In this document: positions 6,784 through 24,475 of the stretch, piece by piece
How the letters are laid out: the number at the start of each line of letters is the position of its first letter
How positions within the stretch are numbered: position 1 is the stretch's first letter
Source: a virus
Length of the DNA stretch: 64,000 nucleotides
Reading direction: 5' to 3' (one strand)
Virus record (IMG/VR): IMGVR_UViG_3300045988_108221
Span: 4,654 to 68,653 of that record
Notes under the pieces: generated by a model
Told to the model about the DNA's origin: nothing
What the model saw: the letters and a program-made list of their open reading frames with translations, nothing else
The model's database searches: none
Position numbers and translations under genes: made by a program

Positions 6784-6815
6784 AAAAACAATAGAGGGGG
6801 TATTCGCCCCTCTAT
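6784..6815 (-). terminator. hairpin plus T-run after the tape measure gene
   Basis: Stem ATAGAGGGG (6791-6799) / CCCCTCTAT (6807-6815), 7-nt loop, followed on the minus strand by TGTTTTT. Confidence 0.55.
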
Positions 6816-6844
6816 CTATAGTATCAAACATTCGACTTTTGTAA
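6810..6844 (-). promoter_or_regulatory. 35-bp late-promoter-like element, copy R3
   Basis: Minus-strand TTACAAAAGTCGAATGTTTGATACTATAGATAGAG. 26 of 35 positions are invariant across all three copies (R1 20786-20820, R2 22723-22757, R3). Confidence 0.5.
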
Positions 6845-6851
6845 CAAGATT

Positions 6852-9800
6852 TTATGCTTGTTTTAATTTCCCAAGAGCAATCAGTTTTTGGTACTTAGAC
6901 AAGAAGTCTTGGTCGGATATTGTTTGTTTAACAAACACAGGTTGAGCGATAGATTGTTGTGAACCAGAACTATTGTTCGCCATATAGTTCATGCCCTTAG
7001 TCATAGCATGAGTATTAGCAACCATTTGATTCATCAATCGGTCTTGCCTTTTAGTTGCATCCGACATAGCACCATTCTTTGTTTCCTCATGTTGCCACTT
7101 AGGTTCAATACCACTTGTTACACCAACACCAAGGTCTTTTGCCGCTTGATTCAATAGTTGACGACCTCGTGCTTTATCTGAGGTTGGGATAATCCATTCC
7201 TTTTTATCACCCTCACCAACACGAACTAATTGGTCTTTGTCAACAGAACCACCGCCAGCGAATTTCAATAGACCAAATTGTTTAGCAAAACCCATGACAG
7301 TACTGAGAGTACCCATCCACTTGTTATTGCCACCACCAGCAATTTTCATGCCAGCGTTGATATATTGAGATACATCGGTTTTACCGTCTTTGTCTTTAGT
7401 TGTCTCAGGTAAGTCTACATTACCTTTTTCACCTTGGACATTACCATAGATTACCGCATCGGTAAATGTCGCTTGTTGCCAAGCAGTACCGTTTTGAGTG
7501 TTAGCCATGAATGTTTCAAAGTTTTTATCAAGGTTTCGTGTAGATTGAGCAGTCAACATTTGATGGTTTAGACTTTCGTCAATACCTCCAATGTTTTTAC
7601 CGTCTTTCCCATCGCCACCCAACACAGGATTGATACCTTTTTGATATTTCTTATCGAATCTCTTTAGTAAGTTCTGTAGCAAACCACCATTACCGTCTTG
7701 GATTTTAAATATCATTTTTAAGGCATCTTCGGCAAGTTGTTTCCACAAGTCTTTCCACACATCTTTAAACTTTTTGCCCTCAAAGATTAATCCGTGGAAT
7801 ACATCGTGTGTTTGTTGCTTGATGTTTTTATTGAGTGCATTGCCTGTTTTCTTGATTTGAACCTCAAGTTTCTTAAGCTCAAGACCAGCCTTGCGAATGT
7901 CAGCTTCGGTATATTCAGAGTCACCACGCTTAAAGGCTGCAACCATATCTTGGTATTTCTTGACTTTAATCATATACTCTTCAACCAAACGATTGACAGT
8001 ACGTACATCAGACACCCAGAAGTTTTCAGATGTTCCTGCAATATCACGGTCTAAATCTTCGTTCTCATGACGGTCTTTCATCATTTGAACGGCTTCGTCA
8101 TAGTCTTTATCACGGTATTTATCTTGAAGACGATGAGTCATAGTTGCTTCATATTTCTTCATCGTTTCTTGAAGACTTTTGACATTGGCTTGAGGATTGA
8201 GTTTTAATAGCTCATCAATCTCTTTTTGCATGCTCTTGATTTTTTCAGTTAAAGATGCCGTTTCTTTTGCAAAATCGGCTTGCTCTTTCGGCTTCATGGC
8301 ATTTTCCATCTCAAGCTGTTCTTTGGCAAGTTTTAGGGCAATGTTTTCAACTTTCTTTTGTTTTTCAATGAGTTTGTTAGCACGATTGTCAGCAGTTTTA
8401 TCCTCATCGCCATAACCATTGTTTGCAAGGGCACGAGCCTTTTGTTGCCGCACCCAGTTATGCTCTTGAGAAGAGCGTTCAACATATTTATCAAAATATG
8501 ATGCATATTCTTCTGGTGTACCATTGACAGATTCACTAAGAACCTTTTGCCAATTACCACGTTCTTTATGTTGCAATTCATACACAAGGAACGCAAGTTG
8601 TGTTTCAAAAGCAGTATAATCAGACTGATTATCTCTTGCGAATTGTTTTAAGTCTTCTAAGCGACTGCCTTGCCATTGAGCAATACCGTACGCACCTGTA
8701 CCGTCTTCCGCCCATGGACGAATATCGTCAAAAGATTCTACTTGTAGATTACCTACGATACCATATGCTTGGTTAACAGAAAACCCTTGTTTTACCAAGA
8801 AATCAATGGCTGCACCAACACGAGTCTCTGCCAAAGGGTTCTTTTGTTTTTTACTTGAGGACTTGCCTTTTTTGCCCTTAGATTCGTCACCTGCTCCATC
8901 TGGTAGTTCGCTTCGTGCATAATCACCTGTGTTACCGCCACCGATAGCACCGCCACCTGCATGACCTGAGTTTGCAGTCATATCCAACTCATTAAGTTTT
9001 TCCGCTTGTTCAACCCTGATATTAGCGATTGCTCGTGCATTAAGTTTTGCGATACTGTCTTGAGCTTCATCTTGCCATTGTTTAGCCATTGATAAAGACT
9101 CTTGAGAGATATTCATTTGGTGTTCGGTTTCAGCCATGCGGTTTTCAAACGCTTGTGCACCTTGTAGGTCTCCCTCTGCTCTTCTTGCTTCGGCTTCGGC
9201 TTTATCTTCTTCAAGTTGTTTCTTGAGGTCTTCAATCCGTGCGTTTGCACGTTTTTCTTTCCATTCGCCAATGATTTGTAACAACTTAGCATAAGCCATT
9301 TGAGCAAGACCAACCCAGCCGATATACTCTTTCAATATAGCCATTCGTCTAATCCAACTGGTTTCTTCGCTTTTGAGAGAGTCTATATTCGCATTGGTTG
9401 CCGCTCTTAATTGATTTGCCGTCTCAGCAATGGCTGCACGTTCGTCTTCGGCTGACTTTTGAAGTTCTTCTTTCTTGCGAGTAATTGCATCTTGTGCTCT
9501 TTGGCTTTGCTCTTCGGCACTATCTGCGGCAAGCACATAAGCAGTCTCTTCTTCACCCAAAATGGCAATAAGTCCTTGTTCTGATTCTTGGACTTGGTTT
9601 TGTAGAGTGATTCGTTCCTGTTCAGATGTTGCTGTGTCTTTTATTTTTTCTTGTAATCGAGAATGGATGGTAATATATTGTTCTGCAACCCCTCTAGCTT
9701 CTTCCATTCTTGCCGCAGTCTCTTCGTATTGTTGAGCTAGCTTTTGGTGTGCTGAATAATCTTCATATAGAGACTTAGTTGTATCTTGTGATGCAGTATA

Positions 9801-11831
9801 AAGGTCGGACAATGTCTCTACAACCATTGCTACAATCATGATGATACCAAGCCATCCGCCAGCAAGTGCTTTTAAACCAGACCCAACACCTTTGATTGCA
9901 CCGCTTGTTGTTGCCATAGCTCGACCAACGCCACTTGTTGCAACAGATGCTTCTTGTGCAGCGACAATATATCCATTTACATGAGTCGTAGCTTCAGTCC
10001 ATAGTCTTGAAACATTCTTAATTACTAATTGGCTGACAGAACCCCATCTGCGTTGAGCAATTAATGCGGCAAGAGTTGCACCAGCTATAACATACATAGA
10101 AGATGGAATAGAGTCAAGCCATTTTAATAAACCCAAGGTGACATCCAATGTGGCTTTAATTGCAGAACCAAGAGTATGACTGCTTGATGTCATTTTCTCC
10201 CATTGAGCAGAAATTTGTTTAAGTTTTGTCTCAATAGTATCTAATTGCATACCAACTTGAGCGTTTGTAAAACCCATAGAAGAAGACGATTGTTTTAATG
10301 CTTCAAGATACTCATTTAAATCTAACATGGCATCTGCTTTATTCCATTGCCATTTACCACCTGAGATAGCCTTTAAAAGACCCTCCATGGACTCTTTTGA
10401 CCCTTGAGCTTTAATCATTAAATCTAATAGAACATCGTCAACTTTACGGAACGATTTTTCACCATTTTCGCCGACCTTATAGACTTCGATACCAAAGTCT
10501 TGCAATGCGGAGATTGCTTTTTTAGAGTGAATAGAACCAAAGATAGACTTTAAGGCATTACCGATTTCACCGCCGTCTGCTTGTGTTTTTCGAGCCATAA
10601 CAGCGACAAGTGCTTGTGCGGAATGAAATGATACACCAACTTCTGCGGCAGATTGAGCCATACGCTTGTTTGCTTCAGATAATGTTTGTGCAGAAACCGT
10701 ATAGTTATGAGCTAATGCAGTCCACGAATCAATAATACGGCTTGAAACACTCACAGCATCGTTTGCATTATGAATTTGGAAACCCCATTGCATGATTGAA
10801 GACTCAAGTGCTTTATTGGCAGATACGATGTCAAACGCATCGGCTACCGCAAGTTTAGTGGCTGCATCTGTTAACGCAAGTACTGTGTTGTTATCTTTGT
10901 ATGCACGACCCCAAAGTTTGGCAGACTCAATCATTTCATGGCTAGTTGTACCATACTTAACGGCAAGTCCTTGTAGTTTGCTTTGCATTTCCTCAAGCTC
11001 ATGCTTAAAGTGTTCCGCTTCTTGCCCAGATAATTGTAGACCATTCACCATATGCGATGGGTCAACTTCCATTAAACTTCGTGCAAAAGCGTTTGTTTGA
11101 CCTGTTCCATGTTTCATTACTTGGGCGAAACCAGCCATATCTTTTTCAACATGTGCCATTTGAGTGAAACTTTGGATAGTTTTATCTAATGCAAACGATG
11201 CGACCATGCGTGTTGCAAGATAACCAAGTCTATGACCTACGTTTTCTGTGTCAATGCCCCATTGTTTTAAAAGACCAATGTTTTCTCTTGTTGCCAAGTT
11301 GACAACTTTTTGTGCTTGATATAGTTTTTGCAATTCAGTATTGAGTGCTCGTGCATTTTGAGCATAAGCCATTGGATTTGTAGCAAAATTTTGTCTATAA
11401 TTTTCTTCCGCTTGTCTCTTTAGGCTCGCAATCTGTCCAGAGAACGATTGTTCTTTAGCCGTCATTGAAGACCGCTGTAATGATTGCCCTAGTTTTTCAA
11501 TGTTTCTTGAAGCATCGGTTACTTCCTTAGAGACATTCTTTGTCATATCACGAACGCTTGCAAACCTAGAGGTTACTTGTCCAAGGGAATTACTGAGAGT
11601 TGCACCGCTTGCAGATGCGGTTTTAAGACTCCTGTCGAGTTGTGCGGCATACTCAGTTAACTTCTTGAATTGGTCTCCACCAGCTTTAACATTAATGGAA
11701 ATATCCTTTACATTCTTGAGTCGTCCAATGGCTTTATCGAGTTCTTGAAGACCCTTGATAACCTTTTGGGTGTCGTCATGGATATTACCATAGTTGACCT
11801 TTATATCATATCCGAATTTCTTATTCGCCAT
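6852..11831 (-). CDS. tape measure protein with internal tail-lysozyme domain
   Basis: 1659 aa, coiled-coil rich, with a hydrophobic central segment. Carries the block AIDFLVKQGFSVNQAYGIVGNLQVESF..GAYGIAQWQGSR. Lies downstream of the frameshifted chaperone pair. Confidence 0.9.
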   Translation of the reverse strand: MANKKFGYDIKVNYGNIHDDTQKVIKGLQELDKAIGRLKNVKDISINVKAGGDQFKKLTEYAAQLDRSLKTASASGATLSNSLGQVTSRFASVRDMTKNVSKEVTDASRNIEKLGQSLQRSSMTAKEQSFSGQIASLKRQAEENYRQNFATNPMAYAQNARALNTELQKLYQAQKVVNLATRENIGLLKQWGIDTENVGHRLGYLATRMVASFALDKTIQSFTQMAHVEKDMAGFAQVMKHGTGQTNAFARSLMEVDPSHMVNGLQLSGQEAEHFKHELEEMQSKLQGLAVKYGTTSHEMIESAKLWGRAYKDNNTVLALTDAATKLAVADAFDIVSANKALESSIMQWGFQIHNANDAVSVSSRIIDSWTALAHNYTVSAQTLSEANKRMAQSAAEVGVSFHSAQALVAVMARKTQADGGEIGNALKSIFGSIHSKKAISALQDFGIEVYKVGENGEKSFRKVDDVLLDLMIKAQGSKESMEGLLKAISGGKWQWNKADAMLDLNEYLEALKQSSSSMGFTNAQVGMQLDTIETKLKQISAQWEKMTSSSHTLGSAIKATLDVTLGLLKWLDSIPSSMYVIAGATLAALIAQRRWGSVSQLVIKNVSRLWTEATTHVNGYIVAAQEASVATSGVGRAMATTSGAIKGVGSGLKALAGGWLGIIMIVAMVVETLSDLYTASQDTTKSLYEDYSAHQKLAQQYEETAARMEEARGVAEQYITIHSRLQEKIKDTATSEQERITLQNQVQESEQGLIAILGEEETAYVLAADSAEEQSQRAQDAITRKKEELQKSAEDERAAIAETANQLRAATNANIDSLKSEETSWIRRMAILKEYIGWVGLAQMAYAKLLQIIGEWKEKRANARIEDLKKQLEEDKAEAEARRAEGDLQGAQAFENRMAETEHQMNISQESLSMAKQWQDEAQDSIAKLNARAIANIRVEQAEKLNELDMTANSGHAGGGAIGGGNTGDYARSELPDGAGDESKGKKGKSSSKKQKNPLAETRVGAAIDFLVKQGFSVNQAYGIVGNLQVESFDDIRPWAEDGTGAYGIAQWQGSRLEDLKQFARDNQSDYTAFETQLAFLVYELQHKERGNWQKVLSESVNGTPEEYASYFDKYVERSSQEHNWVRQQKARALANNGYGDEDKTADNRANKLIEKQKKVENIALKLAKEQLEMENAMKPKEQADFAKETASLTEKIKSMQKEIDELLKLNPQANVKSLQETMKKYEATMTHRLQDKYRDKDYDEAVQMMKDRHENEDLDRDIAGTSENFWVSDVRTVNRLVEEYMIKVKKYQDMVAAFKRGDSEYTEADIRKAGLELKKLEVQIKKTGNALNKNIKQQTHDVFHGLIFEGKKFKDVWKDLWKQLAEDALKMIFKIQDGNGGLLQNLLKRFDKKYQKGINPVLGGDGKDGKNIGGIDESLNHQMLTAQSTRNLDKNFETFMANTQNGTAWQQATFTDAVIYGNVQGEKGNVDLPETTKDKDGKTDVSQYINAGMKIAGGGNNKWMGTLSTVMGFAKQFGLLKFAGGGSVDKDQLVRVGEGDKKEWIIPTSDKARGRQLLNQAAKDLGVGVTSGIEPKWQHEETKNGAMSDATKRQDRLMNQMVANTHAMTKGMNYMANNSSGSQQSIAQPVFVKQTISDQDFLSKYQKLIALGKLKQA

Positions 11832-11845
11832 TTATTTACTCCATT

Positions 11846-12112
11846 CTATTCTGCATATCCAGAACTTAAAAGACCTCGAATGGCATCTGCTCCTGTTACT
11901 GAATTGGAGTCAACAAAAGAGTCTTCCGATGAATCATCTAGTTTATTATTTTCGTTTAATGCAGTAGATAAACCCTCTAGTTCTGGCAAGGTATATTCCA
12001 TTAGACTTGCTTTTGTTTCGCTCGTGTGTTGAACAAGGGATGCGATTACATTGTCGAGTCCGCCATCCCCTGTAGACCCATCATTATCTTTTTTTTTAAA
12101 CCTGAGATACAC
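11846..12112 (-). CDS. tail assembly chaperone, -1 frameshift extension (T part of G-T)
   Basis: This reading frame is -1 relative to 12046..12438 and overlaps it across the A-run. Acidic C-terminal extension. Confidence 0.7.
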   Translation of the reverse strand: MYLRFKKKDNDGSTGDGGLDNVIASLVQHTSETKASLMEYTLPELEGLSTALNENNKLDDSSEDSFVDSNSVTGADAIRGLLSSGYAE

Positions 12113-12438
12113 ATGTATTCATCTAAGATTTCGATACCGCTATCTAAATCAACAACATCCATTACTTCTTTTCTTGGAATGTGTAATGCAAGCTCAAATA
12201 ATTCACACATGGCATTAAATGCCACATAGTCATATTTCACTTTACCATTCTTATCTAGTTCGAATGAACCGTCTTCCTTAGTAATTGGTGTTGGTAAATT
12301 CAAATATAAATACTGGTCATTAATCTTAGACAACAACCGTTCTACTCTTGCATAGTCACCAAGTTTCATTGGATGGATTTGATATTCTTTATCGCCAAGT
12401 TGAACGTATTTACTCTTAGGAATTAATGTGTCTGCCAT
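12046..12438 (-). CDS. tail assembly chaperone (G)
   Basis: 130 aa, sits between the major tail and tape measure genes, ends shortly after the slippery run. Confidence 0.7.
   Translation of the reverse strand: MADTLIPKSKYVQLGDKEYQIHPMKLGDYARVERLLSKINDQYLYLNLPTPITKEDGSFELDKNGKVKYDYVAFNAMCELFELALHIPRKEVMDVVDLDSGIEILDEYMCISGLKKKIMMGLQGMADSTM
12089..12100 (-). promoter_or_regulatory. programmed -1 ribosomal frameshift slippery site
   Basis: Minus strand GGT TTA AAA AAA AAG (9 A in a row). 0 frame reads ..SGLKKKIMMG.., -1 frame reads ..LRFKKKDNDGSTG.. Confidence 0.75.
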
Positions 12439-12455
12439 ATGTTAAATCTCCATAT

Positions 12456-12488
12456 ATAAAAAATAAGGGGCATCATTAAGATGCCCCC
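12456..12488 (-). terminator. rho-independent terminator after the major tail gene
   Basis: GGGGCATC / GATGCCCC stem (12467-12474 / 12480-12487), followed on the minus strand by TTATTTTTT. Confidence 0.75.
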
Positions 12489-12496
12489 ATAAGTTT

Positions 12497-13294
12497 TTAT
12501 TGAATTTCTTGAGTGATTTCCAAGATTTTACCATCGGTACGAGTAGTGTCGTACATTACCTCAAACTCAAGTTGAGGAGCGGACGCCTTTTGGCGTTCGT
12601 GGTCTATATCCATCTTGCCTGTAGCACGTGCACGGAAGATGTGAGTATGAAGAACAACTTTTTTGCCATCGCCCATATCAACTGGGTTAGAAACGTGGCG
12701 GATTTCCACGAATTGAGGAACAGATGTTGCTTTCATTGTTGCACGGCGAGATGTTGTATCAGTACGCAAACCAGATACTTCGATGTATTTATTTGTTACA
12801 GATGCACCTAGCGTGATAGCACCGTTTGCATCAATCGTAAATTGACCTGCGGATGGAGATGCTTTTACATAAACTAAAGTTTCACGTTCGTCTTCCATTT
12901 GCACATCGTTCGCAAGTACAACAATTGTATCTTCTGGAATTACATTGGATACGTTTGGTACAGTAAAGGATGTACCGCTTGCAATCAATGTAGGTTCAAC
13001 AGAGAAAATCAAAGTACCTTTGTTATCGATTTCAGCACCAGCAGTTACACCAAGATAATCAAGGTTGAAACGTGCTTCTGTAAATGATGCAGATACAGAG
13101 GATTCTTTATTCAAGATATAAATAGGTGGCAAGGCATCTGAGCCATACACCTTTTCGTCAGATGAACTAAATGATAGTTTCATTGTTTGAAGCGTGCCTA
13201 GTTTGTAGGCTTCAACTTTGCCGTTTACGACACGTTTCGCCCATGCTTCACCTACACCGTTCAAAACAAAGTTTTTGCCAGTTTGTTGTGCCAT
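12497..13294 (-). CDS. major tail protein
   Basis: Start moved to ATG 13294 (MAQQTGKNFVLNG..) behind CAGGAGAATAC. 265 aa with a strong terminator downstream. Assignment by position. Confidence 0.65.
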   Translation of the reverse strand: MAQQTGKNFVLNGVGEAWAKRVVNGKVEAYKLGTLQTMKLSFSSSDEKVYGSDALPPIYILNKESSVSASFTEARFNLDYLGVTAGAEIDNKGTLIFSVEPTLIASGTSFTVPNVSNVIPEDTIVVLANDVQMEDERETLVYVKASPSAGQFTIDANGAITLGASVTNKYIEVSGLRTDTTSRRATMKATSVPQFVEIRHVSNPVDMGDGKKVVLHTHIFRARATGKMDIDHERQKASAPQLEFEVMYDTTRTDGKILEITQEIQ

Positions 13295-13322
13295 TAAGTA
13301 TTCTCCTGTAATTAAGATGTAA

Positions 13323-13742
13323 TCAAGACCAAGTAAATGGTCTAACTCTAAACATATAACCAATAAGACCTGCTGTGCCTGTAGAGAATGAACCCTCAGC
13401 ATAAACAGACATATCTTCATAATGTTTTTTTAACAATTTGTTCAGGTGGATATATAAGTCATTCATTAGTTTGCGATTGTTACTCCGACCAATAAGTCGA
13501 AACTCAAGCATATTCTTGTTAACCATCCAATTCTTTGTTCCACCTACGGATGGTATGAACGACATAACAAAATAAATATCTTGTTTTTCGTCAACGAGTT
13601 CAGCACCTGCCAACCCTCGTCTCATTTTAGTGTTCCATTCAGTAAGACTCGTTGGGTCTTTTACCCTCAGTAACATAGCCAAGGTTTCATCCTTGCGGAA
13701 TGTATCCCATATTTCGTCTAACAGTTGTACCGTATACTTCAT
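13323..13742 (-). CDS. tail completion / head-tail joining protein (unassigned)
   Basis: Start moved to ATG 13742 (MKYTVQLL..), which overlaps the upstream stop as ATGA. Assignment by synteny only. Confidence 0.4.
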   Translation of the reverse strand: MKYTVQLLDEIWDTFRKDETLAMLLRVKDPTSLTEWNTKMRRGLAGAELVDEKQDIYFVMSFIPSVGGTKNWMVNKNMLEFRLIGRSNNRKLMNDLYIHLNKLLKKHYEDMSVYAEGSFSTGTAGLIGYMFRVRPFTWS

Positions 13743-14347
13743 GCGTTTGCCCCTTTGAAACATCCCTCGATTGAGTCCATTAACCACTCATCGACTGCTT
13801 CATTAATTGCATCTTCAAGTTCAATACACCAATAGAAGACCTCTTCTTCCACAATATGTAGTGGTTCTTGTGGTTCTAGTGGTGGTAATGGTTTTGCCTT
13901 GGGGTTCTTCCGTGGTAGCGGTTTCTCAAGGTTTTTCCCATATAATTTACCACTAGATTTTGTATCCTTTCCACCTCTTTCAGGGGAATGGATAATATCT
14001 CCTTTGTCACGACCTGTGATTGCATTTCCATTAGCTGTCCTAGCGTTGTTGAACCACGAGGAGTTCATGTAATCTGAGACATCTGGGTTGCCTAGGTCTC
14101 CAATTTCTGCACTCGTGTTTGTCACCATAAGTGAACCTGAGCCATACTCAAGGATAAAAGCACCAAGACCCTCAAAATCTAAACCAAGTCTAACCATGTT
14201 TTTGCTTGGTGTATATCGTCTAAGTGTTATATCGTGAGCAGTATATTCACCTTGGTCTGTCGCACTCCATCGTTGCTGGATGCGTTCTGTTAAAGCGAAT
14301 ACATGGTCTTCGACAACCTTAGAGACTACATCTTGGATTGTTTCCAT
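13739..14347 (-). CDS. head-tail joining protein (unassigned)
   Basis: 202-aa ORF in the connector block; no motif recognised. Confidence 0.4.
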   Translation of the reverse strand: METIQDVVSKVVEDHVFALTERIQQRWSATDQGEYTAHDITLRRYTPSKNMVRLGLDFEGLGAFILEYGSGSLMVTNTSAEIGDLGNPDVSDYMNSSWFNNARTANGNAITGRDKGDIIHSPERGGKDTKSSGKLYGKNLEKPLPRKNPKAKPLPPLEPQEPLHIVEEEVFYWCIELEDAINEAVDEWLMDSIEGCFKGANA

Positions 14348-14349
14348 GG

Positions 14350-14937: not shown

Positions 14938-14949
14938 ATATACCTCCGT

Positions 14950-15522
14950 TTAGAACCTGTAGCGAGACAATAGAGACTTAATCTCATTCGTAAACAAATT
15001 AGGGTCAGCAAGGGAAAATCTAGCATCAAGTGTAGTCATTGAGTCTAATGCAGTAAAGGTTGATACCTGAGATATATTCATGGCAAGCATAGCACATGCA
15101 GTTTTTACTTCTTCTGGGATTCCATCATACCCATACTTGTATGTGACCTTGTAATATCTTGCACCACGCAAGAAGATTTTTGAATATGACATTTTATTGG
15201 CATTATTTAGTAGATAAACGTATTTACTGCCGTCAAAATCGTACAGATATGGCTCTATTTCAACACCAACTTCATTTACATCTCGTGTATGAACACCTTG
15301 GATAGACTCAATCTCTAATACAGGGTCATTCTTAAGTATCAGAATACCCTTGCGGTTCGGATGAACAACTTCGATTGCCCTGTTTTGTGAGAACTTTGAT
15401 TGACCATTGTTCGTTCCAACATAGGCATCAATCATTGTCGATGCGAAGCGAACATGAGTCTCATCAAAGGGAATAATCGTTGCATATTCGTCAATCTCAT
15501 TTGGTTCTAAGTACATCGACAT
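14950..15522 (-). CDS. head-tail connector protein (gp6-like position)
   Basis: Start moved to ATG 15522 (MSMYLEPNEIDEYA..) behind CAGGAGAG. Confidence 0.4.
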   Translation of the reverse strand: MSMYLEPNEIDEYATIIPFDETHVRFASTMIDAYVGTNNGQSKFSQNRAIEVVHPNRKGILILKNDPVLEIESIQGVHTRDVNEVGVEIEPYLYDFDGSKYVYLLNNANKMSYSKIFLRGARYYKVTYKYGYDGIPEEVKTACAMLAMNISQVSTFTALDSMTTLDARFSLADPNLFTNEIKSLLSRYRF

Positions 15523-15535
15523 ATTGACTCTCCTG

Positions 15536-15745
15536 TTATTCAGCTTCCGTTTCTTCTTTGTTTTTGGACTGTTTAGTGTCCAATGGTTTAACAACTTTGC
15601 CAGCTTTTTTATCCACAGGCTCTAGTACGGCTTCATTCAAAGCGTATTCTTCCTCGGAAACCTCAAAGCGACCGTTGTCAGATTCAATGATGCGACCACA
15701 CAGATAAATGCGTTTTGCATCACTATCTTTTAATGTTACTAACAT
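15536..15745 (-). CDS. small hypothetical protein
   Basis: Start moved to ATG 15745 (MLVTLKDSDAKR..) behind GGAGA; 69 aa. Confidence 0.4.
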   Translation of the reverse strand: MLVTLKDSDAKRIYLCGRIIESDNGRFEVSEEEYALNEAVLEPVDKKAGKVVKPLDTKQSKNKEETEAE

Positions 15746-15771
15746 ATGTATCTCCATTCGGTTAAAACATT

Positions 15772-15791
15772 GGGGTGTCAAAAGACACCCC
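15772..15791 (-). terminator. hairpin after the major capsid gene (attenuator/terminator)
   Basis: GGGGTGTC aaaa GACACCCC, followed on the minus strand by AATGTTTT. Confidence 0.5.
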
Positions 15792-15819
15792 TGTGATTAA
15801 TCGTTTGAATTATAGCTGA

Positions 15820-16842
15820 TTACGCTTCAACAAAATCAACTTTGAAGTGAGCACCTGCATCTGCACCTTTAGCAACAACTGCGTCAAACATTACTGCAAC
15901 GTACTCGTCTAATAAGTCTTTAGTGTCGCCCATTTTGAATACACGAGCTTCAGAATCACCAACCCAATGACGTTCGATTAAGTTTTCGTTTACAACATAC
16001 AATGTATGTTTTTTGTTAGATGGGTCAAATGGGATATAGTTGTCTGGAATCAATGGTAAATAGCCAGCTTGTGTACGGATAGTATTCACAATGAAACCAT
16101 TGCCTAAATCAACTTTATCAGCAGATTGGTCTACGCTGAAGTTAGGACGGCGAAGTTCTGCACGGCTTAAGTAATCAATAGTCAATGGGTTCGCATAGAT
16201 AGCTGTAGGCATCCCTACAAACTTAGTAGATGCCAAGTTTTGAGCCATTTTCGTGCGAATAGTATCTGTTACAAAATCACCAGAAGCAGTTGCAAAGCTA
16301 TAAGGGTTAGCCACAGTTACAGAGTCTGTAATTTGTGTTGCCAAACCGCAGTATTCAGTTGCAGTAGAGTCTTCAGTAGAAGTTGCATTACCTGTCCAAA
16401 TACCTTTATTGGATGTTTGATATAAATCAACAAGCATATCTGCCATGTCTTTATTTAACATTTGTTTAGCAAGTTCATCGCCTTGTTGAGCAACAATATC
16501 TTGGTCGAATAAAGAGTATTTAATACCAGAAGTGATTGCTTTAATGAACAATGCACGTTCTTTACGACCATAGTCTTCATCGTAAGTACCTGTAACACCG
16601 TATTTACCAGAGTCACCTGTGCGAGCATCTACGAATTTTGCGTTGTGTGCAATCTTAGTTTGTTCCCAATATCTAGATGGGTGACCTGTCGCCATTACGG
16701 ATTTGATACGGTCACGGATTGTTACTTGACGATTCAACAAGTCAAGCATATCTTTTTGGAACTTAGGAAGTTCGATATAGTGAGATTGATTGTAGTCTGC
16801 AACGGCTGCTGCAGAGATAAAACCTGTTTTTGTTACTGCCAT
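15820..16842 (-). CDS. major capsid protein
   Basis: 340 aa, downstream of the scaffold gene with a hairpin after it. Size and position are typical of an HK97-fold capsid. Confidence 0.75.
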   Translation of the reverse strand: MAVTKTGFISAAAVADYNQSHYIELPKFQKDMLDLLNRQVTIRDRIKSVMATGHPSRYWEQTKIAHNAKFVDARTGDSGKYGVTGTYDEDYGRKERALFIKAITSGIKYSLFDQDIVAQQGDELAKQMLNKDMADMLVDLYQTSNKGIWTGNATSTEDSTATEYCGLATQITDSVTVANPYSFATASGDFVTDTIRTKMAQNLASTKFVGMPTAIYANPLTIDYLSRAELRRPNFSVDQSADKVDLGNGFIVNTIRTQAGYLPLIPDNYIPFDPSNKKHTLYVVNENLIERHWVGDSEARVFKMGDTKDLLDEYVAVMFDAVVAKGADAGAHFKVDFVEA

Positions 16843-16887
16843 ATTATGTAGTCTCCTGTTATGAATAGTACTTAAATATCGTCTGTA

Positions 16888-17790
16888 TTATAATACAGAG
16901 TTAACCATATCTGCGAAGTCTGTGAAGTTTTCTTTCTTGCCAGCTTCTAATTTTGCTTTTGTTTCAAGATTTTTAACATCGGAAACAACAGTTGTTTCTT
17001 TTGCGGATGCTTCGATTTCTGCATCTTTGTCAGCAACAGCTTTTTCCAATTCAGCGATTTTCGCATCTTTTTCAGCGATTGTTACATCTTTAGCAGAACA
17101 TTCAGCAGTCAAGCGTTCAACTTCTGCTTTTGCAGTTGCCAATTCTTGAGCTTCAACTTTTGCTTGTTCAGCTTTTGCATTAGCTTCTAATTGAGCCTTG
17201 ATTGTTTCTTCAATAAGGTTTTGAATTTCGTGTTTTTCCATTTGTTTTCCTTTCGCTGCCTTTGCAGCAATTTCAGCAATATAAGTGTTTTGGTATGCGG
17301 CTGCATTTTTAAACAACATAGCAACACCAGTAAATTCGACATCTGCCATTTCAATATAGTCTTCGTGTTCGTGAAGATTGAACATGGCTTCCACGGAGAA
17401 CCCAAGGGAGTCAACGGTCTTTTTAATGAAGTCTGCAATATCTGGGAAGTCGTTTTTATACATGATGCCTGTAAACTTTAGCTCATCACCATCAACCCAA
17501 CACTTTTCGACAACACCAATTTTATTTCTTCGATTGTGAGCAGTCATGAGTTCATCTGGGAATAGCCATGGGTCATAATCACAATTAATACCCATAAGGT
17601 TCATCGTGGATGCACATTTTTCAGCTTCATCAGAAGACAATACTACTGGTCTGTCAACACCATTGGGCGTATAATCAGACGGTGTGTTCAAAAACATACA
17701 AGTACCTGTAAAACGCATTGCATTTGAGTGTAAATTATCAAGGGTTACACTAATTGCATTAGCTTGCAAGGATACCTTTTGCTTATTCAC
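16888..17790 (-). CDS. scaffolding protein (possibly protease-scaffold fusion)
   Basis: C-terminal A/K/E-rich coiled coil (AKAEQAKVEAQELATAKAEVERL..). Lies between the portal and capsid genes. Confidence 0.6.
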   Translation of the reverse strand: MNKQKVSLQANAISVTLDNLHSNAMRFTGTCMFLNTPSDYTPNGVDRPVVLSSDEAEKCASTMNLMGINCDYDPWLFPDELMTAHNRRNKIGVVEKCWVDGDELKFTGIMYKNDFPDIADFIKKTVDSLGFSVEAMFNLHEHEDYIEMADVEFTGVAMLFKNAAAYQNTYIAEIAAKAAKGKQMEKHEIQNLIEETIKAQLEANAKAEQAKVEAQELATAKAEVERLTAECSAKDVTIAEKDAKIAELEKAVADKDAEIEASAKETTVVSDVKNLETKAKLEAGKKENFTDFADMVNSVL

Positions 17791-19087
17791 TATCTGTCTC
17801 TCCTTTCTCCGTAGATTTCTCTAAAGGAACATCTTGTGGGGTGGATATCACTCGTTGTTCAATTAGAGATGATTTATATTCATCGAGCAGTTGATTGCCC
17901 TTTTGAATATCAGGGAGTTCAATACCAAGAACACCATTTAGTTCTTGACGAGCTTCGTTGATTGTGATAACATTACCATCAACAAGTTTTCTAACTCGTT
18001 CAACGGCATCGGCTTGTTGAGCCTTAGTAGGAGTAAACACAAAACGGAACTCAATTTTGCCACCATAACCAAGTCTATCAACGACATATTTATTGATGGC
18101 ACGTTCAAATATTTTCGCCCATGGCTTAATTGTGTATTCCAGCATCTCGTTGTCTTTTTCCGATGATGTTGAACGGTCATTTGAGATTGCAACCCCAAGT
18201 CGTTCTGGTGGAATGTTAAAGCATGTGGCAATAATTTGTAACAACAGCTTTTGCCAATTTAGAGATGCTGACTCGTCACCAATAGGAGACACTTGTTTTG
18301 CATCTAATTGTGTTGTACCAACGATTGCTACAGCAGATTGACCTTGGATTTCACTTTCGATATACACTCGAACTTTCTCGATTTCCTCTTGAGATGCGTT
18401 TGCACCAAGATTAATCAAATACTTTGGCATCGCATTAGAAGAAATATCATTTGCATACTCTTGTACCTCAGATAGATACTTGATGTGTCGATAGGCTTGT
18501 TCTAATGGTGAATAACCAAACTCATCATAAGTCAGTTTCGTGCGTTGTAACATTGCGATTTTATCACATTTATACCACTCCTGAACACCATTGGCGTTCT
18601 GCATGTATCTTGGCTGGTTTAAATCGCCAGACCAATTTGTGACAACTTCAATCGTTTGAGCATCAATAGGGAATAAATACAAAGGTCTATCCCTTTTAAC
18701 AACCTTTTGTTCAAAGAACGCAAGGTCTAACACAATTAAATCTTCAAATAATTTGCCAATGAAGTCATGGTAATCGTCCACAGGGTTAGGTTGTTTAACA
18801 ATCTCAGTTACTTTGCGAATTGCTTTTTTATTTTCGTTATCATCAATAGAAACAACCTCCCATGGCAATGCTAGGATGCCCTCTCGAATTTGATTAATAG
18901 CACTTCTAGCAATAGGTGTTTTTGCCATGTTTCGTAACGCATCGACACTCAACTTAGTTTCCGTGTTTTTGCGTTTCTTATTACCCCAACGACCAAACCA
19001 TGTTTGTGTTACATTGGCAATAGTATCTCGTGTAACGAAAGCACTCATCCATGCGTAAATTTTTTCTCGTAGGTTCATCGTTTCCAA
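17783..19087 (-). CDS. portal protein
   Basis: 434 aa, immediately downstream of and overlapping TerL; acidic C-terminus. Confidence 0.8.
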   Translation of the reverse strand: METMNLREKIYAWMSAFVTRDTIANVTQTWFGRWGNKKRKNTETKLSVDALRNMAKTPIARSAINQIREGILALPWEVVSIDDNENKKAIRKVTEIVKQPNPVDDYHDFIGKLFEDLIVLDLAFFEQKVVKRDRPLYLFPIDAQTIEVVTNWSGDLNQPRYMQNANGVQEWYKCDKIAMLQRTKLTYDEFGYSPLEQAYRHIKYLSEVQEYANDISSNAMPKYLINLGANASQEEIEKVRVYIESEIQGQSAVAIVGTTQLDAKQVSPIGDESASLNWQKLLLQIIATCFNIPPERLGVAISNDRSTSSEKDNEMLEYTIKPWAKIFERAINKYVVDRLGYGGKIEFRFVFTPTKAQQADAVERVRKLVDGNVITINEARQELNGVLGIELPDIQKGNQLLDEYKSSLIEQRVISTPQDVPLEKSTEKGETDSE

Positions 19088-20763
19088 CCTTTCATGAATG
19101 ATAGTGTGTCCATTCGTTTCTTACGAATTGTACCCATCGCACCAACATTGATAGTCGATGAGTTTTCTAAGAATTTAGATATACACCGTTCTAAACAGTC
19201 AGGTGCATCATCGTGGTCTTTTGGAAAGTTCTTAAGTTGACTTTCGAGAACACGATGGTTTTTGTTAAACTTGATGTATCCCTGCTTTATCTTTGGTGCA
19301 AGCGAGCGTATTCTAGTACCCTTGTTGTCGCTCGCTGTACTACGAGCAGAAATCCAGTTTACATACAGACCCATATCAACGGCGGTCTGCTGTAAAGTCT
19401 TAGAGAAGAACTCTTGGAATACGTTCTCTTCGACAATAAAACCGTCTAAACGACCATTATACTTGTCGAGATACAACAGTATATCATTAATAATAATATC
19501 TGGTGACCTGCGTTCAATGTCGGCTTCTAACACATAGAAATAATTATCTACGCCACGACCGACAAATATAATCGCAGAATAATCAGATGTTCGTGATTTA
19601 CCCATAGATAAATCGACAGATGCATATATCTGTTTCATCTTAGGTAAATTCGTTTCGTCATAATAGTTAGCCTTAATCCACGACTCTTTAAACACTCGAC
19701 TCGCTTCTGTCATAGGGTTGTTTTGATACTCTGAGTTGAACGCTTCATCGTCTTGCATACGCAAAATCATGAGTTCTTGATACCAGTTATCACGAGACAA
19801 TCTCATCTTCTCTTCGTATGAACAATCCATGTGTTCAAATAAACCAAAGTTACGACCCTCCCACATTATTTTGACACCGTCCATCATTTCATCTCGATGT
19901 TCCTCAAAATAATCGGCTGCGTTCTTTGCCGCATCTGGGTCTGACAAGTCGTTAAAGATTTCTTCCCAAACAGTCCAACAAGGACTTTCGGAAAACGTGT
20001 ATACAGCTTTATATATTGAACGATTCCAGTTATTAAATTTGGAGTCGGTCAACACTTTATATAGTAATGATTCATAATGCAATACCGAACCAACATACAA
20101 AAATACAGTTCGAGGATTGCCAATCGGCATCAATACTTTCATGAACCAATCATATAATTTCTTGCGTTGGTTTTCTGTTTCTACTGCTTCGTCATTCTCA
20201 AGGTCGTCCAAGATAACAACTTCTGGTCGAATATTGTTATAACTTGAACCACGTAAAGATTGACCGCTTGACTTTGCAAACACTTGGATTTTGTTCTTTG
20301 TGACAATCTTGTCGCTTGCCCATGTCTTATCACCTTTAAGAAGACCAAAGTCTTTTTTCAAACGTTCATTATCTTCTAGTTCGTCTTTTATCGTTTGAAT
20401 GAACTCCTTGGCTTGTTCAAAGGTATCAGATATAATCAGTATGTTCTTACGATAGCCATACACGATTAACCATATAGGGAACACGACCGAGATAATACGG
20501 CTCTTACCGTGACCTCGTGGTGCCGCACGAACAAATTTGTTATGCAAGTTATCAAAGTGCAGTATCATATTTTCTGCATCCCTAAACATCGAATGATGAA
20601 AGTCGCAGAATGGAGTAGAGAATATATGGGGGAAATATGTCTTGGCGAAGTGTTCCAAGTTTGTAGCACCAATATCTTTGTCAGTTGGTGTGTTATCACT
20701 TGGCTCTGTTGTCGCTCGAGATGCCCCTAGTAGCGTGTCTAAAATATTTTCAGCCATTAACAC
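19075..20763 (-). CDS. terL: terminase large subunit
   Basis: Walker A-like APRGHGKS, Walker B-like VVILDDLEND, C-terminal nuclease-type acidic motifs; 562 aa. Confidence 0.9.
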   Translation of the reverse strand: MLMAENILDTLLGASRATTEPSDNTPTDKDIGATNLEHFAKTYFPHIFSTPFCDFHHSMFRDAENMILHFDNLHNKFVRAAPRGHGKSRIISVVFPIWLIVYGYRKNILIISDTFEQAKEFIQTIKDELEDNERLKKDFGLLKGDKTWASDKIVTKNKIQVFAKSSGQSLRGSSYNNIRPEVVILDDLENDEAVETENQRKKLYDWFMKVLMPIGNPRTVFLYVGSVLHYESLLYKVLTDSKFNNWNRSIYKAVYTFSESPCWTVWEEIFNDLSDPDAAKNAADYFEEHRDEMMDGVKIMWEGRNFGLFEHMDCSYEEKMRLSRDNWYQELMILRMQDDEAFNSEYQNNPMTEASRVFKESWIKANYYDETNLPKMKQIYASVDLSMGKSRTSDYSAIIFVGRGVDNYFYVLEADIERRSPDIIINDILLYLDKYNGRLDGFIVEENVFQEFFSKTLQQTAVDMGLYVNWISARSTASDNKGTRIRSLAPKIKQGYIKFNKNHRVLESQLKNFPKDHDDAPDCLERCISKFLENSSTINVGAMGTIRKKRMDTLSFMKGWKR

Positions 20764-20785
20764 ACCTCCTTACAGAAAATTCGTT

Positions 20786-20820
20786 CTCTATATATAGTAT
20801 AAAACACTTTAATTTTGTAA
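20786..20820 (-). promoter_or_regulatory. 35-bp late-promoter-like element, copy R1
   Basis: Minus-strand TTACAAAATTAAAGTGTTTTATACTATATATAGAG, about 20 nt upstream of the terL SD. Confidence 0.55.
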
Positions 20821-20840
20821 CACTTTTTTGAGAAAAATTA

Positions 20841-21449
20841 TCAATTTTGTTGGATTTTTGCATAATTTGCCAATAAAATCTTATTATCTTTCATTTGTTC
20901 ACGCACTTTATTCGCCAAAGCAGGGTCTTCTTTATTGATAATATCCATAATCTCAACGATAATAGAGTTCATAGCTTGGAATGTATAAATTTTCTCTGCG
21001 ACTGTTTGCATATCCTTTAAGATAGACTGTTTTCTTGCGATATACTTCTCTTGGTCTAACATTAGGTCTTTCATACGTTTGTAGACAACATCGGCATCCG
21101 AAGAACCAGTCGCTTGTTGACATTGCAAGTCGTCTATGAACAGTTGTATCATCTCGATTTGTGTCTCAACCATATCAAGTAAGTTCTTTTGTTGGTTATA
21201 GGTGTTAACCACTTCAGTTTCTTCCGATGGTTGCATCTCTTGTACCAAGTTTGTGCGACACCAATCACCGACCATCTTAGGCGTAATCAAGATATTCTGT
21301 AGCTCGCCCTTATGTTCTTTATTTAGTTGTCGAGCGATTGCCGTATAAGATTTACCAGCGTTTCGCCAATCGGTTACATAGTCGCCAAGACCGAAAAAGT
21401 CAATGCGGTTCTCATAACCCTTTTTACGCTTTAATGCGACTTCATTCAT
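20841..21449 (-). CDS. terS: terminase small subunit (putative)
   Basis: 202 aa directly upstream of terL. N-terminal HTH-like SYTAIARQLNKEHKG, coiled-coil rest. Confidence 0.55.
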   Translation of the reverse strand: MNEVALKRKKGYENRIDFFGLGDYVTDWRNAGKSYTAIARQLNKEHKGELQNILITPKMVGDWCRTNLVQEMQPSEETEVVNTYNQQKNLLDMVETQIEMIQLFIDDLQCQQATGSSDADVVYKRMKDLMLDQEKYIARKQSILKDMQTVAEKIYTFQAMNSIIVEIMDIINKEDPALANKVREQMKDNKILLANYAKIQQN

Positions 21450-21484
21450 AATATCAAATTCTCCAAAAATATTTCAAAAAGTTG

Positions 21485-21513
21485 TTGACATAATATATCC
21501 TGTAATGTATCAT
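21485..21513 (+). promoter_or_regulatory. sigma70-type promoter for the recombinase cassette
   Basis: TTGACA (21485-21490), 17-nt spacer, TATCAT (21508-21513). Confidence 0.65.
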
Positions 21514-21553
21514 ATAAGTAGAAATCATGGAAACACACAGGAGGAAACATATC

Positions 21554-22084
21554 ATGGCTAATACAACAGAACCAATTAGAAATCTATCAAAAGTCCAAGA
21601 AATGAAACAAGCACTAGGGAATGACCGAGATAAAATGTTGTTCACTCTTGGCATTAACTCTGGTCTCCGCATCAGCGACCTTGTCGGTCTCACAGTCGAT
21701 GATGTTAAACCAGAGATGGAATTGTATGAACAAAAGACAGGTAAGTTCAAACGGTTTATGTTATCTAAAGAGGTCTACGCATTGTTATGCGAATACGCAA
21801 GCCGATGCAAGCATTGGTTATTTCCAAGTCGCTCTGGTGACGGACATATCTCGACCGTACAAGCGTGGAGGAAAATCAAAGCTGCATCCGTGAAATGTGG
21901 TTTAGATAACATCGGTACGCACTCGATGCGTAAAACATTTGGATACCATGCGTATCGCAAAGGTGTACCGATTGCGTACCTTATGCAAGTCTTTAATCAT
22001 TCCTCGGAAGCAATCACAATGCGATACATTGGTATCACAACAGAGGAATTAAATACTAAAGTGTATGCCATTATGGCTTTATAA
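21554..22084 (+). CDS. minimal tyrosine recombinase (catalytic domain only)
   Basis: Start at ATG 21554 behind AGGAGG. Catalytic signature present: GLRISD (Arg), KTGKFK (Lys), HSMRKT (H..R), NHSSEAITMRY (His, Tyr). Only about 25 aa precede the catalytic domain. Confidence 0.8.
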   Translation: MANTTEPIRNLSKVQEMKQALGNDRDKMLFTLGINSGLRISDLVGLTVDDVKPEMELYEQKTGKFKRFMLSKEVYALLCEYASRCKHWLFPSRSGDGHISTVQAWRKIKAASVKCGLDNIGTHSMRKTFGYHAYRKGVPIAYLMQVFNHSSEAITMRYIGITTEELNTKVYAIMAL

Positions 22085-22099
22085 CAGGAGGAATCACTT

Positions 22100-22354
22100 A
22101 TGATTGCAATTATTTTATTATTACTATTGGTTACCGCAGTTAGTCTTGCGATTGCATTGGTTGTCGGATGGGTAACATCTCCACGCACCGCAGGTATTCT
22201 GTATATTGTTGTCGCTGGCATGTATGGAGCATCCACCGTAAGCAATATCGCTGACGGAACTGTCAAGTTTGGTGACTCTTGGTTGGCTTTTGCAATTTGT
22301 GCAATTTTTGTCTACCTTGGATTGCGATTTATTGCTGAGTTCCCAGAGTATTAA
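22100..22354 (+). CDS. small integral membrane protein (about 3 TM)
   Basis: AGGAGG SD. Hydrophobic segments MIAIILLLLLVTAVSLAIALVVGW.., ILYIVVAGMYG.., WLAFAICAIFVYLGL. Confidence 0.6.
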   Translation: MIAIILLLLLVTAVSLAIALVVGWVTSPRTAGILYIVVAGMYGASTVSNIADGTVKFGDSWLAFAICAIFVYLGLRFIAEFPEY

Positions 22355-22371
22355 TCACAAAGTCTTTTAAA

Positions 22372-22422
22372 GGGCATACATAGGTTTATATCTTAGGATA
22401 TATTCTTATGTATGCCCTTTTT
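22372..22422 (+). terminator. terminator of the plus-strand cassette
   Basis: 11-bp stem GGGCATACATA / TATGTATGCCC (22372-22382 / 22407-22417) followed by TTTTT. The 24-nt loop carries an operator-like box. Confidence 0.65.
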
Positions 22423-22722
22423 GTGTTTCTTGGGTTACATCTGTATGTTTCATTTGTAGTCTCACACGTATGTTAACAGGTTTGGTCTCAAACACAATAT
22501 CTGACTATAAGGCAAACACGTTAGTGTTTATTGTCGAAGACAATCTTATAGGTTTAATACTTATGTATTCTTTAGAGTATTCCTTATAGATTGCTTCGCA
22601 ATATTCCTTACGGAATGTCTTTCAAGTCGGTTTCTTAAGTTTGGGGTAAAACCTTTTTCAAAAGCTGTTTCTTAAAACTCTTTCAAGAACGCACTTGCTT
22701 TCAAACCATAAGTTAAAACTCT

Positions 22723-22757
22723 CTCTACTTATAGGGTAAAACATTTGATTTTTGTAA
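22723..22757 (-). promoter_or_regulatory. 35-bp late-promoter-like element, copy R2
   Basis: Minus-strand TTACAAAAATCAAATGTTTTACCCTATAAGTAGAG. Points toward terS through the antisense strand of the recombinase cassette. Confidence 0.5.
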
Positions 22758-23718: not shown

Positions 23719-23732
23719 TGAACATATGTTCA
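23719..23732. promoter_or_regulatory. 14-bp perfect palindrome TGAACATATGTTCA (GAAC-N4-GTTC core)
   Basis: Read directly; flanked by further CATATG half-sites (23715-23740). Confidence 0.6.
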
Positions 23733-24465: not shown

Positions 24466-24475
24466 TTGTTATTGT

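Follow-up and report, generated by a model that had tools for sequence, protein, structure and literature searches.

Three copies of a conserved element in the late region of an uncultured phage

We analyzed a 64,000-nucleotide (nt) stretch of viral DNA (IMG/VR record IMGVR_UViG_3300045988_108221, positions 4,654 to 68,653; here termed the window) from an uncultured Veillonella siphovirus with a genome of roughly 68 kb. The window contains exactly three copies of a promoter-like element, all on the minus strand, at 20786-20820 (R1), 22723-22757 (R2), and 6810-6844 (R3), and sequence comparison indicates that these are most likely the late promoters of the phage. Almost all genes of the window are likewise encoded on the minus strand. 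The late region extends from about 22.7 kb down to position 1 and comprises the genes for a putative small terminase (terS), the large terminase (terL), the portal, a head-tail adaptor, a 1659-amino-acid (aa) tape measure, and tail proteins. The early region (~24.4-64 kb) encodes a primase, a DnaB-type helicase, two methylases, RusA, dUTPase, ThyX, and a YadA-like adhesin. When the related contig L136 was mapped onto the window, only 3.85 kb of the genome was found to lie outside it; this part encodes a tail fiber, an amidase, small lysis-type proteins, and the remainder of a polymerase gene.

R1 is located between the putative terS gene and terL, R2 at the boundary of the early and late regions, where it is followed by a noncoding leader, and R3 between the tape measure gene and the tail-tip genes. 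All three copies are intergenic and oriented as the genes, and about 26 positions are invariant among them. The coordinates and minus-strand sequences reported for the three copies in an earlier note on this DNA agreed with the window on rereading. The consensus search proposed there, with up to three mismatches allowed, returned the three known sites only, and no site was found in 100 dinucleotide-preserving shuffles. A 46-nt weight matrix, built from 17 variants of the element found in relatives, gave scores of 64.0 bits for R1, 64.7 bits for R2, and 63.3 bits for R3. There were no weaker copies in the window: the next best site for this matrix reached -12 bits, and the best sites in shuffled sequences ranged from -7 to -15 bits. 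The same scan bore out the restriction of the element to the late region, with the motif being absent from the 40-kb early region. No fourth copy was detected in the 3.85 kb outside the window, as read from L136, and related full-length contigs contained three exact matches each. The length of 35 bp given previously describes a real core; however, the conserved block is longer, extending by ~10 nt upstream (AAAA..GTG) and by 1-2 nt downstream. The overall size is thus 35-46 bp, and the full minus-strand blocks are located at 20785..20830 (R1), 22722..22767 (R2), and 6809..6854 (R3), with A-tracts upstream.

The element is conserved in relatives, with a lineage-specific 5′ box

In about 35 related IMG/VR contigs with sizes of 65-72 kb, the same three positions of the genome are occupied by a homologous element; 34 syntenic copies of R3 were counted. 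In lineage 1 (terL 98-99% identical; 92-93% in a sub-lineage), the element is present at all three syntenic positions in the form AAAA..GTTACAAAAnnnnAnTGTTTnnnnCTATAnnTAGAG. Lineage 2 (terL 90% identical) carries nnAACTT-N10-TTTT-N2-CACTATAnnTGAG at the same three positions. Two further lineages contain the element at both positions examinable in each. A prophage of Veillonella sp. 3310 (terL 64% identical) has AAACTTTTnGTTGAC-N9-CTTTTTTACAyTATATATGA at the equivalents of R2 and R1, and an uncultured Megasphaera contig (UQHB01000008; terL 55% identical) has two copies of AAAAACGCGCAACAAAATnGCACTTTTAGGGATTATATATAGAGGG.

The 3′ half of the element, yAyTATAnnT(A)GAG, and the spacing are kept across the four lineages. 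The 5′ box, in contrast, differs by lineage and is identical in kind at every site within one genome: GTTACAAAA at all three sites in lineage 1, AACTT at all three sites in lineage 2, GTTGAC in the prophage, and GCAACAAAA in Megasphaera. Such a joint change within a genome is the pattern expected for sites that are read by a factor evolving with the phage; if a conserved host protein were the only reader, no such pattern would be expected.

No relative at the DNA level was found among GenBank phages, and the terL protein showed at best 33-36% identity to GenBank phage proteins, namely, to Mu-like terminases. Because the Veillonella prophage and the Megasphaera contig are more distant relatives of the phage, its host lineage is taken to be Veillonellaceae. 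A host from this family fits the G+C content of 38%, the strong Shine-Dalgarno sequences, and the presence of an outer-membrane adhesin gene.

A weak sigma70-type core within the element

Every variant of the element can be read in one fixed register, consisting of a -35-like hexamer, a 16-bp spacer (12/12 variants), and nAyTAT as the -10-like hexamer; the R1 register was assigned by hand (the script had matched an earlier TTATA). The window copies read GTTACA-16-TACTAT (R1 and R3) and GTTACA-16-CCCTAT (R2). The corresponding sequences are TTAACT, GTAACT, or ACAACT-16-CACTAT in lineage 2, TTGACA-16-CATTAT and TTGACG-16-CACTAT in the Veillonella prophage, and GCAACA-16-GATTAT in Megasphaera. 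The -35-like hexamer matches TTGACA at 4/6 positions in the window copies, at 2-4/6 in lineage 2, at 5-6/6 in the prophage, and at 3/6 in Megasphaera. As for TATAAT, TACTAT of R1 and R3 matches at 4/6 positions and CCCTAT of R2, the weakest of the three, at 2/6. An extended -10 TG (TGaYACTAT) is present in 4 of the 12 variants, including R3 of the window (TGaTACTAT). The total sigma70 scores of R1, R2, and R3 (8/12, 6/12, and 8/12) all fall under the scan threshold of 9/12.

The TTGACA-17-TATAAT promoters that the earlier note had described for the early region were confirmed on the minus strand; among them are a promoter matching at 12/12 positions (50320-50292) and three matching at 11/12 (60582, 51617, and 44327). 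These canonical promoters of early genes imply that the host enzyme has ordinary specificity. The accompanying claim that the late element differs clearly from sigma70 promoters is not supported in that form, as a weak sigma70-type skeleton is present in all lineages and the prophage even has a perfect TTGACA. Given the shared register and the prophage hexamer, the host sigma70 holoenzyme assisted by an activator is at least as likely to act on the element as a new sigma factor. The skeleton points to host RNA polymerase, carrying its primary sigma factor, as the enzyme at work, and the ~26 invariant positions together with the weak hexamers suggest that this enzyme requires assistance. Transcription is predicted to start in or just after TAGAG.

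A sigma-region-4-like protein covaries with the box

The minus-strand gene at 45318..45971, proposed earlier as the source of a specificity factor, encodes a 217-aa protein with a helix-turn-helix (HTH) of the sigma-70 region 4/LuxR type at approximately residues 57-131; its C-terminal domain contains four conserved cysteines (C183, C200, C203, and C207). An exhaustive profile search with this protein yielded a family of 74 representative clusters of ~200 aa, which share a PE(D/E)IL motif, a four-helix HTH, and a C-terminal region with four invariant cysteines; the N terminus is not conserved and is absent in some members. We scanned 53 family members individually against domain models and obtained matches to five of these over the HTH part only. 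Sigma70_r4 was matched by 26/53 members, Sigma70_r4_2 by 25/53, the sigma-70 family model TIGR02937 by 42/53, GerE by 10/53, and PRK06930 (“positive control sigma-like factor”), weakly, by 19/53. Apart from these five, the Pfam model Phage_antitermQ was matched weakly by 8/53 (best E value, 5e-4). The best E value for a Pfam model of sigma region 4 was 7.5e-10, and some members reached the curated cutoff. The 217-aa protein itself matches TIGR02937 over model positions 69-159 of 165 only, with an E value of no better than 0.013. A profile search of the sequences of solved structures returned only YlxM (E value, 0.14). In an AlphaFold model, residues 57-143 were predicted with confidence, and the best local Foldseek matches were to the -35-binding domains of ECF sigma factors (target-relative TM scores of 0.6-0.7). 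The label “sigma-region-4-like” is thus supported at the family level. As a specificity factor, the 217-aa protein is the best candidate, by virtue of its family and of the switch of its helix with the box described below, but it is not a complete sigma factor, since it has no region 2.

Lineages 1 and 2 share 44% identity in the 217-aa protein, compared to 80-92% in its immediate neighbors. Between lineage 1 and the sub-lineage that shares the same box, the protein is 73% identical and the predicted recognition helix is essentially unchanged. This helix reads EYKMLTSRRLKK in the window, GEYKM[LM]TSRRLKK in every contig of lineage 1 and the sub-lineage, and GLSYTYVC[AS]KYK in every contig of lineage 2. 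The helix type fitted the box type in all 21 contigs that were readable for both (9 with GTTACAAAA and 12 with AACTT); in a 22nd contig, the available sequence stopped short of the element. No homologue of the regulator was found within 10 kb of terL in the Veillonella prophage or the Megasphaera lineage, and of two wider searches for the regulator, one recovered lineages 1 and 2 only and the other found nothing in viral contigs. The contigs that encode more distant family members are short and contain early genes only.

The gene occupies a central position in the replication module. Distant family members included, it always overlaps the start of, or directly precedes, a gene for a protein of 230-280 aa, which in the window encodes a metallophosphoesterase (PHROG “DNA repair exonuclease”; 44512-45354, minus strand). 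This pairing hints at a functional link.

Predicted transcription units downstream of R1, R2, and R3

R1 lies just upstream of terL (19075..20763, minus strand), the first gene after it, as had been described earlier; the element ends 22 nt before the terL ATG. Between R2 and R1 lies the gene for the putative small terminase (20841..21449, minus strand), a 202-aa protein with a weak N-terminal HTH (HTH_38), which was assigned putatively by its position upstream of terL only. A terminator scan revealed two internal terminator-like hairpins on the minus strand of the R1 unit, at 12466..12488 and at 15772..15791, the latter after a 340-aa gene at 15820-16842.

The position of R3 between the tape measure and tail-tip genes was also confirmed: the element lies 7 nt past the stop codon of the tape measure gene and 40 nt before the first tail-tip gene, which encodes an NlpC/P60 protein (6350..6769, minus strand) and is followed by genes for a tail assembly protein and a J-like central fiber (1280-5131). 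A hairpin, GATAGAGGGG-N7-CCCCCTCTATT, with a T-run overlaps the 3′ end of R3 (6790..6816, minus strand; -17.4 kcal/mol, z score of -3.3). Its stem is kept in both lineages while the loop is variable, and the last bases of R3 form its 5′ arm. The hairpin looks like a terminator for transcripts reading through from the tape measure gene. A transcript initiated at R3 would carry no full stem, with the 5′ arm missing or the hairpin placed at the extreme 5′ end, and R3 and the hairpin together would form an economical stop-and-restart arrangement. An intrinsic terminator is not a general feature of the element: R1 and R2 are without a G+C-rich hairpin and T-run, and the conserved block lies upstream of the R3 hairpin.

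The designation of R2 as the nearest element upstream of terS is correct in that no other copy lies between the two; immediately after R2, however, there are ~360 nt of noncoding sequence, followed by an operon in the antisense orientation. This layout does not support R2 as simply a terS promoter. The noncoding leader (22362..22721, minus strand), which would be transcribed from R2 if R2 is a promoter, contains no credible open reading frame (ORF). It can form several hairpins with GNRA- and UUCG-type loops, in which the lineages differ by compensatory changes, with eight pairs altered on both sides, and it terminates in a 24-bp hairpin (22369-22420; -24.9 kcal/mol, z score of -8.3). The lineage 2 version of this hairpin carries a T-run in the R2 direction. 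The segment 22300-24500 gave no Rfam match above the noise level; in particular, the R2 product did not match ROOL (RF03087). The leader may be a new phage noncoding RNA or a structured leader. The operon downstream is encoded on the plus strand and comprises a 185-aa tyrosine recombinase convergent with R2 (21527-22084; phrog_216, 1.8e-54) and an 84-aa membrane protein (22100-22354), preceded by a near-consensus sigma70-like promoter (21485-21513, plus strand). Read-through from R2 would be antisense to this operon (21527..22354), which separates R2 and its leader from terS.

The recombinase-operon layout is repeated in the Megasphaera contig, with a 199-aa recombinase. In this contig (L146), a ROOL RNA (RF03087, 215 bits) and three tRNAs are located at 8252-8840, between the gene at the terS position and terL, and the equivalent of R1 (~8152-8192) lies 60 nt upstream of ROOL with no protein-coding gene involved. 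Because the Megasphaera element precedes RNA genes at promoter distance, it lends independent support to a promoter function. It further appears from this arrangement that ROOL is produced along with the late packaging genes. Among the phages examined, ROOL was present in the Megasphaera relative only.

Other features of the window

Between the early and late regions, a stretch of ~1.7 kb (22770-24470) contains no convincing genes and many short direct and inverted repeats (for example, CGATTGT..ATCGATA, CATACTAGGGT, and CATATGAACATATG); it may constitute an origin or packaging region. The adjoining segment at 24400-28000 has a G+C content of 26-30%, compared to 38% elsewhere, and its small ORFs have no homologues in the available parts of lineage 2. 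A tRNA-Lys gene is located at 27797-27871 (plus strand), and two tRNA-Ser genes are located at 50748-51026 (minus strand). The YadA-like trimeric autotransporter adhesin (476 aa; 40696-42126, minus strand) contains head, stalk, and membrane-anchor domains and is 81% identical in lineage 2. The minus-strand product of 42148-42474 showed a weak, subthreshold Pfam match (E value, 0.006) to the Tad2-like domain of Thoeris antidefense, and a faint match to the same family was seen in a related contig (L178). A DnaE-like gene for DNA polymerase III alpha (~61756-64000, plus strand) is divergent from all other early genes and runs off the end of the window, for which reason it is absent from the ORF list; in L136, it encodes 1051 aa.

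Screen for a phage RNA polymerase and sigma factors

The reviewed early-region ORFs of ≥55 aa (24.4-64 kb) and the ORFs of the missing 3.85 kb were screened against Pfam, and most of the larger late genes were screened against Pfam or PHROGs. Neither this screen nor an inspection of ORF lengths revealed an RNA polymerase gene in the window or in L136:11289-15135. ORFs of >500 aa were limited to those of the tape measure, terL, the DnaE-like polymerase, and the J-like fiber. Among the reviewed ORFs, neither sigma region 2 (Sigma70_r2) nor any other Pfam sigma domain was found. The genome thus appears to encode no recognizable complete sigma factor of the kind represented by SPO1 gp28 and gp34, with regions 2 and 4.

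We also considered a promoter for a single-subunit RNA polymerase of the T7/SP6 type. The likeness is superficial: lineage 2 and the sub-lineage contain TGACACTATA, compared with the SP6 core GACACTATAG, and a long invariant block ends at the start site. This candidate was rejected, since the above screen of the complete genome revealed no RNA polymerase gene; for the same reason, we regard the resemblance of TGACACTATA to the SP6 promoter core as coincidental.

Proposed activator-dependent late promoters and alternative explanations

The reading that we prefer, and to which we give about an even chance, is that the three elements are activator-dependent late promoters with a phage-specific box around -35 that is bound by the 217-aa HTH protein. 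Each element would consist of a weak sigma70-type core inside a longer lineage-specific block, with an A-tract near -45, AAAA after the -35 hexamer, a spacer containing TGTTT, and TAGAG at the start. The three sites should be poor promoters for host RNA polymerase on its own; a phage protein from the early region would bind the lineage-specific 5′ box around -35 and turn the promoters on. The best candidate for the binding protein is the 217-aa protein with its sigma-region-4-like HTH and four-cysteine domain, and its mode of action would be similar to that of the Ltr late activators of Firmicute phages. Activation of R2 would yield the structured ~360-nt RNA and, by read-through, a transcript antisense to the recombinase operon that continues into terS. 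The R1 unit would begin with terL, include the head and tail genes, and end with the tape measure gene, and R3 would serve for reinitiation at the terminator after the tape measure gene, driving the tail-tip and lysis genes. The suggestion of a distinct late promoter class can be kept in part. In their behavior, the elements resemble promoters of a class peculiar to the phage: all lie between genes and in gene orientation, 22-40 nt before start codons or before a noncoding RNA, are syntenic in four lineages, and change their boxes jointly. They are, however, not cleanly non-sigma70.

Several observations weigh against an activator of this kind or against its identification with the 217-aa protein. 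In the -10-like hexamer of R2, the key A is missing. The protein-box association traces to one evolutionary split and is a correlation, not proof; other early proteins, including several small ORFs between 24 and 44 kb, are also strongly divergent between the lineages. One of these proteins, an 88-aa protein with a CxxC-x14-FCxxxC zinc-finger motif (34254-34520, minus strand), shows 37% identity over 40 aa between the two lineages and might also be a lineage-specific regulator, although it is a weaker candidate than the 217-aa protein. On its own, the window 217-aa protein has no significant match in Pfam or PHROGs (KorB, 0.003), and the Foldseek E values of its model (0.3-3) are not significant. 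Its gene lies 22.5 kb upstream of R2 and not beside terS as in Ltr phages, and the constant pairing with the metallophosphoesterase gene could point to another role of the protein.

The alternative that fares best, which we nevertheless consider unlikely, assigns the 217-aa protein to the polymerase itself: as a module consisting of sigma region 4 only, it would sit on the beta flap and read the phage -35 box in place of region 4 of the host sigma factor, with yAyTATAnnTAGAG being read by host sigma region 2 or by an unrecognized sigma2-like partner from the phage. The homology of the family to sigma factors specifically, beyond generic HTHs (TIGR02937, 42/53; PRK06930, 19/53), and the location of the variable box exactly at the place of the -35 hexamer, 16 bp from the -10-like hexamer, are in keeping with such a role. 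Sigma appropriation is exemplified by MotA/AsiA of T4 and a split sigma factor by T4 gp55/gp33. A possible further point in favor is the resemblance of the conserved TATAnnTA to the T4 late motif TATAAATA; the -35 box might also be interpreted as one of the clostridial TcdR/BotR type. On the other hand, the 217-aa protein has no region 2 (the TIGR02937 match covers model positions 69-159 only), the N terminus of its family is unconserved and missing in some members, and Pfam detected no gp55-like or AsiA-like protein in the reviewed ORFs. Contact of the 217-aa protein with RNA polymerase is an assumption of this alternative. In its most far-reaching form, this alternative would make the protein a free-standing module of sigma region 4, substituting for host region 4 at -35 and equipping each lineage with a portable -35 code. 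Its promoters would drive virion genes and also large structured RNAs late in infection (ROOL in the Megasphaera phage and the new ~360-nt RNA in the Veillonella phages); we regard this proposal as doubtful.

The elements could also be plain host sigma70 promoters that require no phage factor, with their conservation reflecting the tuning of promoter strength and their timing resulting from the order of genome entry or from template copy number. We place this explanation next, as an improbable one. The register shared by all lineages, TTGACA-16-CATTAT of the prophage, the extended -10 TG in 4/12 variants, and the UP-like upstream A-tracts are all compatible with it. However, the window copies match sigma70 hexamers at only 8/12, 6/12, and 8/12 positions, compared to 11-12/12 for the early promoters of the same genome, and the ~26 invariant positions far exceed the needs of sigma70. 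Nor would plain promoters account for the absence of the motif from the 40-kb early region or for a 5′ box that has switched jointly at three sites between lineages presumably infecting the same genus.

Less probable again is that a Q-like antiterminator is loaded at the elements. In this case, the 217-aa protein would join RNA polymerase at a box embedded in the promoter and allow it to read through hairpins. Terminator-like hairpins do follow the elements: at +1 to +30 of R3, at ~+300 to +350 of R2, where the lineage 2 hairpin ends in a proper T-run oriented as R2, and within the R1 unit at 15.78 and 12.47 kb. Phage_antitermQ matches weakly in 8/53 family members, and the 217-aa protein has a size and a cysteine-rich character that we take to be typical of Q proteins. 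In the one member in which the position of the Q match was visible, however, it was confined to the shared HTH segment and was weak (E value, 0.034; best in the family, 5e-4), and no Q structure was among the 50 fold matches listed. Furthermore, Q systems use one strong constitutive promoter, whereas three weak ones are present here.

Functions other than promoter activity appear very improbable: recombination sites of the small tyrosine recombinase are suggested by R2 and R1 flanking the recombinase gene as direct repeats, with the recombinase operon and terS between them in all lineages examined, and a terminator or RNA-processing signal is suggested by the overlap of R3 with a hairpin. However, a repeat scan of the R2 region found no inverted arms in the element, and inspection by eye revealed in no copy a dyad with a central spacer as is typical of tyrosine recombinase cores. 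R3 lies 14 kb from the recombinase gene, and terS would be lost if the direct repeats recombined. Moreover, a hairpin is absent from R1 and R2, the block upstream of the R3 hairpin is conserved as sequence and not as structure, and a homologous copy precedes the ROOL RNA gene.

Relation to known late regulators

It is well known that late promoters are served by dedicated phage regulators. The late activators of phages of Gram-positive bacteria form the Ltr superfamily, which includes RinA, ArpU, LtrA (Sigma70_r4), LtrB (DUF1492), and LtrC (PMC3753634, PMC3152322); LtrA proteins activate terS promoters (PMC3753634). The 217-aa family is similar to this group in having a sigma-region-4-like DNA-binding domain (Sigma70_r4 in 26/53 and Sigma70_r4_2 in 25/53 members), its predicted targets are likewise promoters of packaging and morphogenesis genes in a host that belongs to the Firmicutes in the broad sense, and two of its members weakly match DUF1492. 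It falls outside the definition of the superfamily (PMC3753634), with 217 aa compared to about 130 and an extra conserved C-terminal four-cysteine domain. The gene (45.3-46.0 kb) is remote from terS (20.8-21.4 kb), whereas Ltr genes lie directly upstream of terS; there are three targets instead of one, with one of the three leading into a noncoding RNA; and there is no membership at the sequence level, the window protein having no Pfam or PHROG match. A second comparison is with Xpf of the Bacillus subtilis prophage PBSX (PRK06930), also a sigma-like phage or prophage protein for late expression, which 19/53 family members match weakly. Xpf, however, is described as sigma-like as a whole, whereas the 217-aa family aligns to the region 4 part only, with all matches under the curated cutoffs.

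T4 middle promoters combine a MotA box at -30 with a sigma70 -10 element and operate by sigma appropriation, and the Mor- and C-dependent promoters of Mu are akin to them. As we understand these systems, they share with the elements described here a usable -10-like element, a poor -35 element with a phage box in its place or overlapping it, and timing by an early phage protein. They differ in that no homologue of MotA, AsiA, Mor, or C was found in the present phage and in that the conserved block here also covers the spacer and the start site. The lambdoid Q system (PR′-QBE-tR′) is similar in the placement of a regulator site in a late promoter, in a leader of a few hundred nucleotides that ends in a strong hairpin (as after R2), and in a cysteine-rich regulator of ~200 aa; the three promoters here are weak instead of one being strong, and similarity to Q is seen at the HTH level only.

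A literature search for dedicated studies of gene control in Veillonella or Megasphaera phages found none. What sets the present case apart is the combination of a sigma-4-like HTH with a four-cysteine domain, the position of the gene in the replication module, the three targets, the two-state swap of specificity, and the link to structured RNAs. Phages of Veillonella and Megasphaera are common in the human mouth and gut, and the promoter motif offers a means of annotating late operons among phages of this group. Lineages 1 and 2 represent a natural specificity swap in which each box occurs with its own helix, which makes the protein-DNA code of the sigma-region-4-like domain directly testable. 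ROOL, an RNA of unknown function, and the new structured RNA appear to be under late-phase control beside the packaging genes, which provides a lead on the timing of their synthesis.

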